Source of the DNA: a virus
DNA length: 10,511 bases
UHGV virus genome: UHGV-0048736
Reading direction: 5' to 3' (one strand)
The notes below the pieces were generated by a model. It was given only the letters and a program-made list of their open reading frames with translations, did no database searches and was not told where the DNA came from. Made by a program: the position numbers and the translations under genes. Of the stretch, positions 1,009 through 10,461 are shown one piece after another (position 1 is the stretch's first letter; every line of letters begins with the position of its first letter).

Positions 1009-1225
1009 GGGTCCTTCCTGGAATTATGGACCCGTTACGGGGCGGCGACCTCGCGGTTTTTATCTGTTTATGAAAATTTTTCTGGAAAAAGCATGTCGGT
1101 ACTTCTCGAACATAACTATTTGTTTTTAAATAGATACACAATAAAAAGAAACGACACGGTAATCATCTAAAATGGCGATTTATGACGCTTTCATGTCGTT
1201 TCTCAGTTTTGTTCAATAATTGCGC
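1009..1225 (+). other. Lambda-type cos site, left copy, plus orientation: upstream hairpin, cosN and a cosB-like region with R-site-like motifs
   Basis: Exact lambda cohesive-end 12-mer GGGCGGCGACCT at 1040-1051 followed by CGCGGTTTTT...TTTATGAAAATTTTTCTGG, closely resembling the lambda left end as I recall it. R-site-like motifs: CATGTCGGTACTTCTC (about 1083-1098), GAAACGACACGG (1149-1160) and inverted CATGTCGTTTC (1191-1201). GGGTCC...GGACCC hairpin at 1009-1033. Confidence 0.75.
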
Positions 1226-1230
1226 GTCTG

Positions 1231-1773: not shown

Positions 1774-1775
1774 TA

Positions 1776-1811
1776 ATACACCAACTTAATTACTGCTTCA
1801 GGTTGGTGTAT
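1776..1811. promoter_or_regulatory. Perfect 10-bp inverted repeat ATACACCAAC-N16-GTTGGTGTAT abutting the Nu1-like start codon
   Basis: Arms at 1776-1785 and 1802-1811 are exact reverse complements; located 3 to 38 nt upstream of the start at 1773, between the right cosN copy and the gene. Confidence 0.5.
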
Positions 1812-1866
1812 TGTTTGCATCTTTCCCTTTTCATTCATAAAGATAGAGCAAACAACAAAACCACCA

Positions 1867-1875
1867 CCCCCCCCC
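1867..1875. repeat. Homopolymeric C9 tract (G9 on the coding strand) in the Nu1-like upstream region
   Basis: ccaccaccccccccctg read directly; lies between the right cosN copy and the Nu1-like start. Confidence 0.6.
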
Positions 1876-1896
1876 TGAAAAGGCTCATAAATAGCG

Positions 1897-1948
1897 AAAA
1901 ACCGCGAGGTCGCCGCCCCGTAACGGGTCCATATGCCGGAAAGGACCC
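1897..1948 (-). other. Second cosN copy, inverted orientation, collinear with the Nu1-like gene
   Basis: Positions 1897-1933 are the exact reverse complement of 1025-1061 (37/37). cosN GGGCGGCGACCT is on the minus strand at 1907-1918, followed on the minus strand by CGCTATTTATGA as in lambda and then divergent sequence. GGGTCC...GGACCC hairpin conserved at 1926-1948 with a different loop. Confidence 0.75.
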
Positions 1949-1950
1949 AT

Positions 1951-1974
1951 AAAAAAAAGCCGGATTTCTCCGGC
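1951..1974 (-). terminator. Rho-independent terminator after the 137-aa gene
   Basis: GCCGGA-tttc-TCCGGC hairpin (1959-1974) preceded on the plus strand by A8 (1951-1958), giving hairpin plus U-run on the minus transcript; 7 nt past the stop at 1981. Confidence 0.7.
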
Positions 1975-1980
1975 CTTGTC

Positions 1981-2753: not shown

Positions 2754-3809
2754 TTAAGCAATTTTGACGGTAACAAATTTGCGAATATCTGCCGGAACCG
2801 GCTGCGGTGCGCTGTGCGTCTGCACGTACTCAATCGCCGGATCGCCGTCCTCAATCCAGTTTTTCGGGTAAAACATGTTTTGCGTTGCGCCCGTTCTTAC
2901 TGCGTCCTGATCCATAATCGCACCATAGGCCACCAGCCCTTTATTGTTGGTGTTGCCCAGGACAAGCAAATCAGGCTCAAGGAAATATTTTTCTGTGCCG
3001 TCGCTGTCGGCGTATTTGCCGGAATAGACGATAAGGGCAATATCGCCCAGATAGCCTTTAAAGCTCACCACTTCGCCCAGGTTTTTACAGGCCAGCTCTA
3101 CGGCGGACTCTGAACCACGGGAAAGATCGTACAGCTCACGGAATTTTTTAAAGCTGCGTAACGTGCGCCATACCTCAGCGCCCATAATCATGACGTTTGC
3201 GGGGCAACCAGCCTGATCAGCATAAAGCTCGATGTCATAGATTGGATCGTGTGTTTCCTTATCTGCCTCTGACCACTTTTTACCCGGTCCCTGTCTGGCG
3301 ATGTTTTTACTTGGGATCTTCCAGTCTATTTCATAGCGTTCTATGCCTTCGCCCTCAATGATGTTTTTTCCGGTCGTTATCGCATTCACCGCCAGCCATT
3401 CCACGCGCGCTTTAATGGCGTTTATCTGGCGGCGCATGTTGCCAGTAATCAGGCGCATACGGCGGTAGGTAGGGTCGTTAAGCTGTGCTGGATCTTCTCC
3501 AGCCATGCGCATGATGGTTTTTGTTGGATCGATTTCGTGCTTTGGCTTCATGTAGCCAGGTTTGATTGTGCTGGTTTCGTACCCTTTATCGCGCTGAACC
3601 TGGCTACCCACCATAGGCGAACAAAACGCCGACATGGTGACTTCTTCAATGTCCAGGGTATCCAGCATGATGTTTTGCGTGTTGAATGTCGCCACGTTCG
3701 GGAAAAACAGCGTAGTAAACAGAGGGCTGAATTTAAAATCCGCAATATCCCCGCGATTCAGGTACATGAAAAGCTGGTTAGTGTTAAGTGCCGTTGCTTT
3801 GCCTGCCAT
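2754..3809 (-). CDS. Major capsid protein, lambda gpE-like
   Basis: 351 aa (gpE is 341 aa). FKFSPLFTTLFFP versus gpE FKFDPLFLRLFF; KPGYMKPKHEI versus TPGYVKPKHEV; DPTYRRMRLI versus DPAYRRRRII; YPKNWIEDGDPA versus YPKNWVTTGDPA; C-terminal FVTVKIA versus FVSVQLA. GGGGGTG Shine-Dalgarno. Confidence 0.9.
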   Translation of the reverse strand: MAGKATALNTNQLFMYLNRGDIADFKFSPLFTTLFFPNVATFNTQNIMLDTLDIEEVTMSAFCSPMVGSQVQRDKGYETSTIKPGYMKPKHEIDPTKTIMRMAGEDPAQLNDPTYRRMRLITGNMRRQINAIKARVEWLAVNAITTGKNIIEGEGIERYEIDWKIPSKNIARQGPGKKWSEADKETHDPIYDIELYADQAGCPANVMIMGAEVWRTLRSFKKFRELYDLSRGSESAVELACKNLGEVVSFKGYLGDIALIVYSGKYADSDGTEKYFLEPDLLVLGNTNNKGLVAYGAIMDQDAVRTGATQNMFYPKNWIEDGDPAIEYVQTHSAPQPVPADIRKFVTVKIA

Positions 3810-4139: not shown

Positions 4140-4179
4140 GATCATGTGTGTCAGTGCACCAAAAAGCCTCATATGCAAA

Positions 4180-4217
4180 AGCCCGATAAGCCACCTCTGA
4201 CCTTATCGGGCTTTTTT
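4180..4217 (+). terminator. Hairpin plus T-run, plus-strand (possibly bidirectional) terminator
   Basis: AGCCCGATAAG (4180-4190) pairs with CTTATCGGGCT (4202-4212) around an 11-nt loop, followed by T6 and preceded by A4. No plus-strand ORF upstream. Confidence 0.5.
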
Positions 4218-4392
4218 ATCTGCCTGCAAAGATGTCGAACAAAAATTAACCACAACCATCATCTTTTTTGCATCAAAACAATTAAAAACAATAAATTACG
4301 CTCATGATGATGATGACGATAAAATCACAAAAATGCGCTTTTTTCCGCGCCTCCCGCCCCGTGTTCAGGCCCACCCCGCCAGGAGGACCCGT

Positions 4393-4430: not shown

Positions 4431-4853
4431 TTAAAACGGTATGTTATCCCCGTACGGATCATCATTCCCCGCCTGTTGTTTTGCCCTGTTCAGCGCGTCA
4501 GTAGCCTGGCCCTGTTGACCTTTTTTGCCGCCCAGTCGCGCCGTTCGCGCACTGATTACACTGTCTGCGATAACCTGCCAGCCCTGCCGCGTTTCTCCGT
4601 TCTGCCCAGTCCACTGGCTGATCTGCATGTTACCCGCCACGCTCAGGAGTTCACCCTTGCGGTGCCTTTCCAGTGCTTCGGCCTGTCTGCCAAATGCCAG
4701 GACGGATAACCACATCGTCGCCGTTCCGTCATCTGCCTGGCTGCACGGAAGGGGGACCGCCATACGCGCCAGCGTCATCGGTGTGCCCTTGCTGGTCTGT
4801 TTTACCTGCGGGTCGTCCACCAGCCGCCCGTAAGCGGCTATCTGTGCTGTCAT
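4431..4853 (-). CDS. ssb: Single-stranded DNA-binding protein
   Basis: 140 aa. OB-fold pattern alignable to E. coli SSB (TMWLSVLAFGRQAEALERHRKGELLSVAGNMQISQWTGQNGETR versus [44 protein letters not shown]); Gly/Gln-rich linker; C-terminal tail DDPYGDNIPF like SSB DFDDDIPF. ATGA start/stop overlap with the upstream 85-aa ORF. Confidence 0.8.
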   Translation of the reverse strand: MTAQIAAYGRLVDDPQVKQTSKGTPMTLARMAVPLPCSQADDGTATMWLSVLAFGRQAEALERHRKGELLSVAGNMQISQWTGQNGETRQGWQVIADSVISARTARLGGKKGQQGQATDALNRAKQQAGNDDPYGDNIPF

Positions 4854-5395: not shown

Positions 5396-7144
5396 TTATA
5401 AAAACGCGTCGCAATCGTCTGTTGTTATTGCGTTAGTCTGCGTTACTCCTTTAACTTTCCGCGTAATATATTCATGTCCGTAAACTTTCGCGGCTGGCTT
5501 CATAGCCTTGCCAAAGTCATTTACGTTTAGCGGTTTGCTCCTGCCTGCGTACGCCATAAACGCCAGATAGACGCGGTAAAGGCTGTTTCTGGTCGTGTAC
5601 TTCACTGAATCGCCACCGCCGCCCATCATCAGGCCGCGTGCTTCCTCCAGAAAATTCAGGAACTGGCAAAACTCAATAACCGGATCCGTCTGTTGCTTTA
5701 TTGCCAGTGCTTCATCACCGTCACGCTGTTCAATGAGTAAAGCCCGTGCCTTTTCAGGGTCGGCAAAGTTCGCCAGCAAGCGGCGGATAATGACAGGGAT
5801 TTCAGCCGCGATCTTTTCCGGTAGCTCCCTGTCTTTTTCTGCCTCGCTTACGATGTTATCGAACCGGAATATCACCCGACGACGTGCCACACCTCCGGCC
5901 CGTTCGGTGAATATCATCGGATTGTTATTGGTTGCCAGCACCACCGCCCTGATTACCGCCGTAAAACGCTTTTCATATTTCGGGTTAATTTCCACGGGGT
6001 CGCCGCCCGTGATTTTCTTGATGCCCGTTCCTTCGCCTGTATATTTCGGCTGGTCTGCCAGGACGATAAGACGACTCCCGACAACCTGCGCACGCCCACC
6101 AGCATCATCAAGCGATGTCATTTCAGCGCTTACCGTGTTTTGTTTCCCTGCCAGAAGGCTGGCTATGTGTGTGAATGTACTTTTACCGCTCCCGCCGTCT
6201 CCGGTGGCCTCAATAAACATCTGCCAGTCGTACCGGTTCGCCATAATCATGTACAGCGCGGCACATATACGCATCATCTTGCGCGGGTCTTTTCCGGCTG
6301 CGTGCTCAAGCCATTTATGAAAGTTTGGCGCGTTATCGCGGATGTTCTCCCCGGGTGCTGGTGGCGTGTACTCAATGCCGTTGTGCGTGGTGATCCAGTT
6401 CTCCGGCGTGTGCGGGGAAAATTCCCCCGTTTTCAGGTCAAGCGCACCATTGGCGAACGGCAGCAAATCGCCGGACGGCTCGCCCATTGGTTCGGCAATA
6501 ACTTTTAACGCTTCCACGGCGTTATTGATTACGCGCTTGCTGAAAGTGGCCCTGTGCTCTGAATAGATCGCCACCATTTCGCGGCTCAGCTCCATTGTGC
6601 TGACCGGACACCATACCCCGCCGCGCCATACGTGAACGATTTCACTTTCAGGATGCACACAAACGCCATCAAAGCGCTCGGCAAGCAGCTGCGCACGCTC
6701 ACTGTCTGCCATTTGTGCCAGTTGCGTATTTTTCTGCTCCGGCATGGTAAGCCCTGCGGCAATATTTTCACGCTCAGCATTCAGATAGCGCCGCCAGTTT
6801 TCACACTTCTGGACGTGCATTCCTTCGGGGTAAAAATTTGCGTCCTGAATATCTGCCGCCGCCAGCTTCTGACCAATCTTTTTGGTCTCCACCAAATCCA
6901 GTTCTCCGGCCTGGTACAGCCTTACGCGCTTTTTCCCATCCGGAACAATTTTCAGTGCATCAAGTTCGGCAAGCTGATTTGGCCCAAGCCACACAGGCGG
7001 CACATTATCGCCGGATGCGGGGCCATCCTGCTCCTGCCATTGTTTCGCGTGCGACCAGGCATCACTACCCGCGAAAATAATTACCTCTGTGTCTTTGTGT
7101 TTTATTCCGCGTGGCTGTTTTTTTACGTTCGGTGCCAGTTTCAT
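5396..7144 (-). CDS. Replication protein: primase / SF3 (D5- or P4-alpha-type) helicase
   Basis: 582 aa. Walker A EATGDGGSGKSTF, downstream Walker B-like hydrophobic stretch (RLIVLADQP) and C-terminal region typical of P4-family primase/helicase; N-terminal roughly 250 aa is primase-like. ATGA overlap with the upstream 99-aa gene; CAGGGG Shine-Dalgarno. Confidence 0.9.
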   Translation of the reverse strand: MKLAPNVKKQPRGIKHKDTEVIIFAGSDAWSHAKQWQEQDGPASGDNVPPVWLGPNQLAELDALKIVPDGKKRVRLYQAGELDLVETKKIGQKLAAADIQDANFYPEGMHVQKCENWRRYLNAERENIAAGLTMPEQKNTQLAQMADSERAQLLAERFDGVCVHPESEIVHVWRGGVWCPVSTMELSREMVAIYSEHRATFSKRVINNAVEALKVIAEPMGEPSGDLLPFANGALDLKTGEFSPHTPENWITTHNGIEYTPPAPGENIRDNAPNFHKWLEHAAGKDPRKMMRICAALYMIMANRYDWQMFIEATGDGGSGKSTFTHIASLLAGKQNTVSAEMTSLDDAGGRAQVVGSRLIVLADQPKYTGEGTGIKKITGGDPVEINPKYEKRFTAVIRAVVLATNNNPMIFTERAGGVARRRVIFRFDNIVSEAEKDRELPEKIAAEIPVIIRRLLANFADPEKARALLIEQRDGDEALAIKQQTDPVIEFCQFLNFLEEARGLMMGGGGDSVKYTTRNSLYRVYLAFMAYAGRSKPLNVNDFGKAMKPAAKVYGHEYITRKVKGVTQTNAITTDDCDAFL

Positions 7145-8593: not shown

Positions 8594-8803
8594 TTACGCT
8601 GCCTTACCTGAATTAATGCGATCCCGGCTTTTAACCCATTCCATAACCTCGGACAGCAGCCAACCTACAGAACGCCCACCAAGATTACGGCGAGACGGAA
8701 AGCTCCCTTTTTTCTCCAGTTCGTAGCGTGTAGTGCGACACACTCCAGTTAACTTACGACATTCATCCTCACGGATTACGCGATCTTCATTTATTTCACG
8801 CAT
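8594..8803 (-). CDS. alpA: AlpA-family phage transcriptional regulator
   Basis: 69 aa from the internal ATG at 8803 (the 98-aa ORF in the track starts at a GTG inside AT-rich promoter-like sequence). C-terminal half ...RRNLGGRSVGWLLSEVMEWVKSR fits the AlpA-family pattern as I recall it. Located next to the integrase as in P4-like elements and PICIs. Confidence 0.7.
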   Translation of the reverse strand: MREINEDRVIREDECRKLTGVCRTTRYELEKKGSFPSRRNLGGRSVGWLLSEVMEWVKSRDRINSGKAA

Positions 8804-8926
8804 ACAAAAACCTACATAAAAATTACGTATATAAACTTTTCTCTTAGCTGTAGATATATGAGATCGGATATTACTTAGATTCTTTTTCACCTATTAAATT
8901 AAAAACACAACCATGCTAAAGGCTTT

Positions 8927-9222: not shown

Positions 9223-10461
9223 TCAAGAATTTTGGGGGTAAATTCGCGGGGTCATAACAACGATTTTTTCATCATTGTTCTGGAGAAGCTCGAGACGGTC
9301 TACCCATAGATTAAGAGCATCACGTTTTGCATCAAGGTAGCGGGAGTGGTTATAGACTCGTTGCATCCCTGGCATCTGGTGGGCTGTAAGCTGCTCGACA
9401 ATATGCGGATCCACGCCTAAATCGTTCAGTATGGTTGTAAATGTGTGCCGGATATCGTGTAACGTCCAGGGGGCTTGATTAATTCGTCTGTGCGCTGTTC
9501 TTCCGTACTCTGCTACCGAAGATTGTCCTTTCAGTTCACCAAGCAATAAGCCTGTGTGTCTGTTCTGCTCCACCAGTTGCGTGACGAACGGCAAAATGCT
9601 TTCCGGTATTGGCCTGAATATGGCGACCTTCGTTTTGCTGTGCTCCTTCGGTACTGTCCAGAGCATTTCTTTAAAATCCCACTCCTGCACCTCAGAGCGC
9701 CTTAGCTCAGTGGTACGGCATCCAAAAACAATCAGGAGGCGAATTAGGGCGCTGTAGTATGGCGGGAATATTTTGTCATCCAGGGCGCGGAGTAATTCCC
9801 CAAGCTCCTTATTTGTTAGTACGCGCTCGCTCACTTCTGCTTTTTTTCCCACATCACCGACAACCATATCATCAAGAACGTTGCTGATTGCGTATCGTCG
9901 TTTTCGGCAGTACTTAAGCGCCTGTTTGCATACCTGTAGCAAAAATCCGGCAGATACTGGGCTTCGCTTTGCCATCTGGTCAAAACATGCCAACCAGTGC
10001 CGTAGCTCGCATTTTTCCAACGGCAAAGCGCCAATCTGGCTGATTATGTGTTTATTGATCCGGCTTTTCAGTGATTCGTAGTCAGTGCGCTTTTCCTTTG
10101 CATACGATTCAAGCCAGTAAGTGAGCGCTTCCTTAACTGTCACGGGGGCTAACGCATCCTGTACAGCACGATTAAGCTCATAGCGCGGATTTTTCCCCTC
10201 AGCCAGCCAGGCGCGACACTGTGCTGCTTTTTCCCTGGCTGCTTTCAGGCTCAGATCGGGATAATTGCCCAGTCTCAGACGTTCCGGTGATACCTGCCTA
10301 CCAGTTCCGGCCCTGTAAGTGAAATACCAGGTTAACAGGCCGCTGGTGGAATGTCTTACGCTAAGATTGCCACCGTCATTAAAAAAGGCGTTTTTTGTGG
10401 TTGGTGATCCGCTTAATTTTCGTAAAAGAGTGTCGCTAAGTCTATGAATTGCGCTGCTCAT
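9223..10461 (-). CDS. int: Tyrosine site-specific integrase, P4-type
   Basis: 412 aa. C-terminal catalytic region with HDIRHT (His-x-x-Arg) and a downstream tyrosine (RVYNHSRYL); N-terminal region typical of the P4-integrase arm-binding domain. Start codon 25 nt from the right att repeat. Confidence 0.93.
   Translation of the reverse strand: MSSAIHRLSDTLLRKLSGSPTTKNAFFNDGGNLSVRHSTSGLLTWYFTYRAGTGRQVSPERLRLGNYPDLSLKAAREKAAQCRAWLAEGKNPRYELNRAVQDALAPVTVKEALTYWLESYAKEKRTDYESLKSRINKHIISQIGALPLEKCELRHWLACFDQMAKRSPVSAGFLLQVCKQALKYCRKRRYAISNVLDDMVVGDVGKKAEVSERVLTNKELGELLRALDDKIFPPYYSALIRLLIVFGCRTTELRRSEVQEWDFKEMLWTVPKEHSKTKVAIFRPIPESILPFVTQLVEQNRHTGLLLGELKGQSSVAEYGRTAHRRINQAPWTLHDIRHTFTTILNDLGVDPHIVEQLTAHQMPGMQRVYNHSRYLDAKRDALNLWVDRLELLQNNDEKIVVMTPRIYPQNS

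Follow-up and report, generated by a model that had tools for sequence, protein, structure and literature searches.

The window, by which we mean the whole 10,511-nucleotide stretch analysed here, is 100% identical to sequence in E. coli SF-166, where the element lies between the host genes clpS and cspD. The minus strand carries all of the long genes of the window, and those that concern us, together with one predicted terminator, are as follows:

9223-10461, minus: tyrosine integrase
8594-8890, minus: AlpA
5396-7144, minus: D5-type primase
4431-4853, minus: SSB
2754-3809, minus: lambda gpE-like capsid protein
2407-2742, minus: gpD-like decoration protein
1981-2394, minus: 137-aa protein
1951..1977, minus: predicted intrinsic terminator after the 137-aa gene, stem 1977..1956, T8 1958..1951
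1231-1773, minus: Nu1-family small terminase (TerS), 180 aa
693-974, minus: conserved 93-aa protein

The window corresponds to an E. coli phage-inducible chromosomal island (PICI), a satellite rather than a phage. Within about 10 kb at a chromosomal site, int, alpA, a primase/replicase, a capsid homologue and terS follow one another in a single direction, which is the canonical gene order of Gram-negative PICIs (PMC10085698, PMC6092414), and no tail, lysis or TerL genes are found among the genes of the island. Among 5426 complete E. coli genomes, 479 contain at least 80% of the region 960-2000, and the carriers of the island include O157:H7, O145, Nissle 1917 and ATCC 25922.

A first-pass annotation of this DNA had placed a terminator between the TerS gene and the head operon, and a minus-strand scan indeed predicts one there. 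It ends the capsid-gene operon just ahead of cosQ and is found in lineages with the 137-aa gene, being absent where the upstream gene is an AlpA-like one of 127 aa. The 137-aa protein itself corresponds to phrog_1999 and also matches the C-terminal part of the head maturation protease phrog_53 (E = 9e-9), which is the part that in lambda encodes the Nu3 scaffold, so that a scaffold-like gene may stand beside the capsid and decoration homologues of the island.

Several other features of the island deserve mention. The 93-aa protein matches phrog_1561 (E = 1e-55, unknown function), and its gene lies downstream of TerS, or of the 144-aa gene of the sister island L010, either directly or after the second cos site (cos2), in all of the E. 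coli islands examined. On the plus strand a 27-nt direct repeat (GTTYCCGAAA..ATCAACGGGTTAGGC) occurs three times: two copies (519-545 and 618-644) lie towards the clpS-side end of the island, downstream of the 93-aa gene, while the third (672-698) overlaps the stop codon of that gene; these repeats might be iterons or integrase arm sites. A 21-nt inverted repeat at 4170-4222 (14 bp perfect, 4177-4190 / 4202-4215), with A- and T-runs on its flanks, looks like a bidirectional terminator between a 68-aa gene and the SSB gene.

The small terminase of the island

The description of the gene at 1231-1773 as Nu1-like is well founded. The island TerS matches Pfam PF07471 with 83 bits (cut-off 30) over residues 33-148 and phrog_57 with E = 3e-53 over residues 1-174, and over about residues 5-166 it is 46% identical to N15 gp1 and 35% identical to lambda Nu1. 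N15 gp1 is the closest characterised TerS and has a similar N-terminal AFDKWGV segment. The alignment extends to the C-terminal IPGLLxxYI region (LPQILADYL vs IPGLLSEYI), and sequence homologous to the end by which Nu1 binds TerL is retained in the island TerS. The start codon is kept in 17 homologues. No close phage copy of the protein was found in the collection, where all matches were below 60% identity.

The AlphaFold2 model of TerS is of low confidence (pLDDT 54.9, pTM 0.28, with residues 1-27 at pLDDT below 50) and too poor to confirm a winged-helix fold at the N-terminus, which aligns with N15 gp1 from residue 5, and a PDB sequence search with TerS gave no match, neither RppC nor the DNA-binding domain of lambda Nu1 being recovered. 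The coding sequence contains an A8 run on the coding strand at 1745-1752 (AACAAAAAAAACATG), in codons 8-10 of the TerS N-terminus. The database includes TerS homologues of 178-181 aa; P0007 (178 aa), the only one of these that was aligned, lacks two residues near position 88, far from the A8 run.

Layout and conservation of the cos sites

The TerS gene had been credited with a leader of its own and described as bracketed by two cos hairpins. Two inverted copies do flank the gene (1025-1080 and 1878-1933, 56 nt each and 89% complementary, both with GGGTCCT and GGGCGGCGACCT), but each is a complete cosQ plus cosN and not a hairpin, and the supposed leader, the interval 1774-1918, is simply a cos site. 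We number this site, cos1, along the minus strand, taking 1918, where the cohesive end starts, as bp 1, which puts the TerS start at bp 146. The order on the minus strand is cosQ, cosN, I2, R3', I1', R2', R1' and the TerS gene, with the following features:

1942..1948, minus: cosQ of cos1, GGGTCCT, in the block GGGTCC.TTC; matches CGGGTCCTTTCC, R4 of the phage 21 record
1907..1918, minus: cosN of cos1, 12-nt cohesive-end sequence GGGCGGCGACCT, identical to the lambda left end
1884..1896, minus: conserved block CGCTATTTATGAG, bp 23-35, kept across genera
1867..1875, minus: G9 on the coding strand (= C9), bp 44-52, between I2 and R3', known from an allele series
1851..1868, minus: R3' candidate GGTGGTGGTTTTGTTGTT, bp 51-68, a near-invariant block with the N15 R3 core
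1833..1847, minus: I1' candidate (IHF-site position) TCTATCTTTATGAAT, bp 72-86, from position and block conservation
1802..1813, minus: R2' candidate CAATACACCAAC, bp 106-117, the distal repeat arm, inverted relative to R3', from conservation and spacing
1775..1785, minus: R1' candidate GTTGGTGTATT, bp 134-144, the proximal repeat arm, containing the SD-like GGTG (1782..1779)

This arrangement is of the lambda type: a 12-nt cosN sequence with cosQ about 30 bp upstream, a candidate R2 box inverted relative to R3, a direct candidate R1, and the inverted pair ahead of the TerS gene. The lambda cosB has the same plan as that of phage 21 (PMC9026076), in whose GenBank record the annotated features are R3 (bp 50-65), I1 (72-86), an inverted R2 (107-122), R1 (150-165) and gene 1 (bp 189). 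Lambda and phage 21 agree with the candidate subsites of cos1 in order, orientation and near coordinates (R3 at about 50-68, I1 at 72-86, and an inverted R2 at about 106-122), and share with cos1 an inverted R2/R1 pair directly upstream of the TerS start and a cosN and cosQ that are identical or near-identical. Lambda also has CGCTATTTATGA in common with cos1, and its R2, at about bp 109-124, has the position and orientation of R2'. The last 6 bp of the CGCTATTTATGAG block overlap the position of the annotated I2 of phage 21 (bp 30-44, TATGAAAATTTTTCA), and lambda reads CGCTATTTATGAA at the coordinates of that block. The I1' candidate, an AT-rich block, is identical to phage 21 I1 (bp 72-86) at 10 of 15 positions and to lambda bp 72-86 at 9 of 15, and is only weakly similar to the IHF consensus. 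The differences from the two phages lie in the boxes, which read CGTTTCC in lambda and CATGTCGG in phage 21 but are G/T-rich in cos1 (GGTGGT..TTGTTG / GGTTGGTGT); in R1', which is about 17 bp nearer R2' than the R1 of either phage and overlaps the ribosome-binding site; and in the absence of a TerL gene after cos1 and TerS.

In sequence the boxes resemble that of N15, the R3 of which has been mapped to bp 48-60 (PMC9026076), where N15 reads GAGGTTGTTGTTT. The sequence TTGTTGTTT at bp 61-69 of cos1 is also that of N15 bp 52-60, inside N15 R3. The distal arm, when reverse-complemented to AGGTTGGTGTAT, agrees with N15 R3 at 10 of 12 positions. At the equivalent place, just upstream of the TerS genes of more distant related phages, stands GAGGTTGGTTGTTG or GTTGTTGTTT. 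The N15 cosB consists of a single R3, with gene 1 from bp 89 (PMC9026076), and N15 needs R3 only; cos1 differs from it by the extra conserved I1-like and R2' blocks, by a TerS start at bp 146 and by a distance between cosN and the TTGTTGTTT core that is 9 bp greater. On these likenesses the distal arm is best read as a candidate inverted R box (R2') of N15-type specificity, and the proximal arm as a candidate R1'. R3' and the reverse complement of R2' are moderately similar (about 8/12 ungapped), and motif searches of the window with N15 R3 or with the arm sequence gave no enrichment over shuffles. Because the motif statistics are not significant, the assignment of the R boxes rests on position and conservation.

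Conservation was assessed over 24 distinct leaders taken from E. coli genomes, from two species genomes and from contigs encoding TerS homologues with identities as low as 57%, the sources being E. coli, Enterobacter and Citrobacter (by source name), Kosakonia, Superficieibacter and metagenome contigs. A profile scan of contigs with the TerS alignment gave 6 loci only, and a contig scan with a single TerS protein found nothing. All of the collected leaders share one context, capsid-decoration-(137-aa or AlpA-like gene)-cos-TerS. The GGGTCC.TTC block is kept in 20 of 20 aligned leaders, one of them with a 1-nt gap after GGGTCC. At R3', GGTGGTGGT[T/G]TTGTTGTT is near-invariant in most of the 24 leader variants, which span at least five genera, a few showing single-base departures; the TATC....ATGAWT block (bp 74-86) of I1' is kept across genera; and R2' reads CAATACACC[A/C]AC in 19 of the 24, the others having 1-3 substitutions. 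The cosN sequence, the ribosome-binding site and the ATG are among the conserved blocks as well.

Spacing is also conserved. The distance from the TTGTT core of R3' to the CAATAC of R2' is exactly 45 bp in all 24 variants, even though what lies between has diverged strongly from genus to genus. The distance between CAATAC and the ATG ranges from 40 to 45 bp among the leader variants, and that between the bp 23-35 block (CGCTATTTATGA) and the TTGTT core is 38 bp, with variants of 35, 37 and 39. Only R3' and R2' behave as constrained sites. R1' is the least constrained box: most E. coli lineages have it in degenerate form, and lineages beyond the E. coli clade lack it. R1' perfectly complements R2' in the lineage of the window only, which includes the O157:H7 and O145 islands. 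Elsewhere its position is taken by GTGGGGATATTG, GTGGGGGTATTG or GTTGTGGTATCA (other E. coli lineages), by GAGGT (other genera) or by GTAGATGTATTG (metagenome contig L025, with a TerS 76% identical), the arms in this last case being complementary at 10 of 12 positions. A covariation of TerS residue 18 (S/G) with the A/C of R2' was considered and set aside as suggestive only: the main clades agree with it, but in L029-L031 an unchanged protein motif goes with a different R2'.

The second site, cos2, recognised from its sequence likeness to the cos of lambda and to the annotated cos of phage 21, is phage-type and oppositely oriented:

1009..1204, plus: cos2
1009-1015, plus: cosQ
1040-1051, plus: cosN
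1089-1104, plus: R3''
1111-1125, plus: I1''
1146-1161, plus: R2''
1189-1204, plus: R1''

Its cosB is complete, the four subsites standing at the coordinates they have in lambda and phage 21. The site aligns with lambda cos over 151 bp at 74%; phage 21 is the closest (R3 13/16, I1 13/15), and the lambda core TGTCGTTTC is found in R1''. Comparison of the window (1009-1230) with L012, L013, L010, L008 and L017 shows that the cosB of cos2 is a module interchanged among islands with about 98% identity elsewhere, with 40% divergence in 1086-1230 vs 2.4% in TerS. There are at least four R-box types, CATGTCG.., TCAGATCC.., ATGTCCGGTT.. and one with a different cosN. Two cos sites are already known from EcCICFT073, where their purpose has been posed as an open question (PMC6739421), and the present comparison suggests that one cos serves the island's own TerS and that the other matches the cosB of a helper.

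Readings of the inverted repeat and the G-run

The inverted repeat reported at the TerS start codon is present and perfect, but it is 11 bp long rather than 10 and lies 1 nt rather than 3 nt from the ATG. AATACACCAAC (1775-1785) pairs with GTTGGTGTATT (1802-1812) across a loop of 16 nt, and on the coding (minus) strand the proximal arm stops 1 nt before the ATG at 1773. Perfect 11-bp inverted repeats with a 3-30 nt loop were obtained in 38 of 500 dinucleotide shuffles of the window, and homopolymers of at least nine in 213 of 500; the repeat is only modestly unusual by chance, and a homopolymer of that length is not unusual. As neither feature is statistically striking alone, their significance rests on position and on comparison with relatives. 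Among the roles that had been proposed for the repeat, that of a TerS self-binding site appears best supported, its arms standing at the R2 and R1 places of a lambda-type cosB. We think it probable that 1774-1918 is the cos1 of a PICI that encodes its own complete TerS, and that the repeat is the R2'/R1' pair of this site and not part of a regulatory leader.

An effect on translation has to be weighed against this. The arms could pair in the mRNA and hide the GGUG and the AUG-adjacent region, so that TerS synthesis would stay low until the stem melts. The first-pass annotation had seen no Shine-Dalgarno sequence and had supposed that translation control might be unusual, but the SD-like GGTG (1782..1779) sits 5 nt before the ATG, and its predicted anti-SD duplex (-8.4 kcal/mol) compares with -4.1 in lambda Nu1 and with values between -7 and -10 in most close relatives, where GGGGA or GAGGT takes the place of the GGTG. 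The GGUG does fall within the 3' arm of the hairpin, the stem of the window lineage is predicted to be stable (-14.5 kcal/mol for a 45-nt segment, and -19.9 kcal/mol for an 81-nt segment, z = -3.3 vs shuffles), and in some distant relatives a conserved CACCCAC can pair with a GAGGUG or GGUGGG ribosome-binding site (-10.5 kcal/mol in L032). Against such a device stand the relatives at large: most lineages have a disrupted stem and other genera have none, 6 of its 11 pairs are broken in relatives and not one pair shows a compensatory change, and the stems predicted for other E. coli lineages reach only -3 to -7 kcal/mol. Moreover, the fixed 45-bp R2'-R3' spacing is a constraint at the level of DNA that an anti-SD role leaves unexplained, and the unchanged hairpin of the window lineage is uninformative, as the surrounding divergence is only 2.4%. 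An Rfam search found no family, the sole match being to a miRNA at chance level (E = 0.92). We consider it unlikely that the repeat is to be explained as an occluding hairpin. The hairpin may lower TerS translation in the window lineage and is not a conserved device; since inverted G/T-rich R boxes form such a hairpin anyway, this effect would be compatible with the cosB reading. It is also conceivable that only the distal element is functional and that the palindrome is a lineage-specific accident, the proximal arm having no function. The frequency of equally good repeats somewhere in the shuffled windows (the same 38 of 500) would allow this, and the proximal arm differs in most lineages and is an ordinary GAGGT in other genera. 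Yet the arms are 77.7% complementary over 11 E. coli-clade variants, compared with 25-43% in slid registers, and this, with the 10/12 complementarity kept by L025, suggests descent from a true inverted pair. We regard an accident as distinctly improbable.

The C9 tract lies at 1867-1875 as reported, and the variation in length that had been anticipated is seen when isolates are compared, with G6, G9, G11 and G13 alleles on the coding strand. These alleles are the sole differences over 2.48 kb between the window and four other genomes, which makes the tract a true hot spot for mutation. In 5426 genomes the exact G9 context was seen three times, G9 being found in the window and two other genomes only, and G6 is the allele of most close relatives; G11 is found in UPEC129, G13 in PA45B and DLL557, and G3-TGG-TGG-TGG-TGG in the O145 and O157 islands. 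From this series the G-run evidently derives from an ancestral (TGG)n tract by T-to-G substitutions. As the step from G6 to G9 is such a substitution, the cosN-R3' spacing is unchanged and is at the family norm in the window. In G11 a T has been lost, G13 combines a T-to-G change with one additional G, and three lineages lack one TGG unit.

A tract of this kind might be a contingency switch, with frequent changes in the length of the G-run altering TerS expression or the function of cos1. That five genomes differ in nothing else over 2.48 kb would fit such a switch, as would the location of the run in the cosN-to-R3 interval and the shifts of -3, -1 and +1 in cosN-R3' spacing among natural variants. 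In lambda, a 3-bp deletion in this interval causes a severe packaging defect (PMC9026076), and an effect of the G-run on the efficiency of cos1 is possible for that reason. The run is, however, not a classical phase-variation tract, being non-coding and 94 bp upstream of the ATG, and a sigma-70 promoter scan of 900-2100 found no match. G6 and G9 differ by substitution with the same spacing, the single-base differences in length come from three assemblies only and could owe something to homopolymer assembly errors, and the bases immediately 5' of R3' differ freely from one genus to another. We regard a contingency switch as very unlikely. It would be a long shot, drawn from the analogy with lambda, to suppose that the hypermutable (TGG)n/G-run tunes or turns off packaging from cos1, that use then shifts between cos1 and cos2, and that the paired cos sites are a form of helper-range bet-hedging.

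The island TerS beside known systems

If the repeat is the R2'/R1' pair of cos1, as we favour, a simple scheme for the packaging of the island can be drawn. The island TerS, with its N15-like DNA-binding end, would bind R3' and R2' across a bend that IHF may make between them, and would recruit the large terminase of the helper to cut the cosN of cos1; island DNA could in this way be packaged independently of the cosB specificity of the helper. R1' would double as the ribosome-binding site. From the Nu1-like C-terminus of the protein, the lack of a close phage copy and the Rpp-sized gene that occupies the same slot in L010, we infer that TerS binds cos1 and recruits the helper TerL directly. 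The finding is real and largely explained, as a lambda-style cosB for a satellite-encoded TerS, and for purposes of annotation the inverted repeat belongs within cos rather than in a regulatory leader. Two modest things are new, a previously undescribed multi-box cosB of TerS-type enterobacterial PICIs and a hypermutable tract in its spacer; a literature search found no paper on the cosB of such islands. The candidate binding sites are precisely placed and can be put to the test.

The nearest known elements are the EcCICFT073-type PICIs (cos1-rppA-cos2; Fillol-Salom 2018/2019), which have their backbone in common with this island, including the capsid E homologue, the decoration D homologue and the two cos sites. 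Publications on the packaging of enterobacterial PICIs treat Rpp-type islands, the cos of which is described as having none of the repeated R boxes (PMC6739421, PMC9026076). The Rpp proteins are 135-153 residues long, have a TerS-like DNA-binding domain, are without the TerL-binding end and depend on the TerS of the helper (PMC9026076). EcCICFT073-type islands combine Rpp with a cos that has no repeated R boxes (PMC9026076), whereas the present island combines a full-length TerS with several R-like boxes. We considered whether the island protein is itself an Rpp and rejected this, as it has 180 aa and aligns to Nu1 and N15 gp1 through their C-termini.

The sister island L010 carries a 144-aa gene of Rpp-like size in the exact slot of TerS, between the same two inverted cos sites. 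At the R3 position of its cos1 (bp 53-65; L010 4765-4777) stands ACACCACCACCAC, which is the complement of the (TGG)n in the TerS-type R3' and resembles the R2' arm ACACCAACC. The present island represents an alternative to Rpp, in which a full-length Nu1/N15-type TerS with its own multi-box cosB takes the same slot between inverted cos sites, and the TerS cassette and the Rpp-like cassette form a natural matched pair for studying how satellites re-target the terminase of their helpers.

A further parallel is offered by the staphylococcal pac islands (SaPIs), in which a satellite-encoded small terminase, the SaPI TerS, redirects the large terminase of the helper to satellite DNA (PMC6739421). 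SaPIs package by the headful (pac) mechanism with a TerS of an unrelated family, whereas this island is cos-type and its TerS belongs to the Nu1 family. By analogy, we infer that the island TerS would be the cos-type counterpart of the SaPI TerS.
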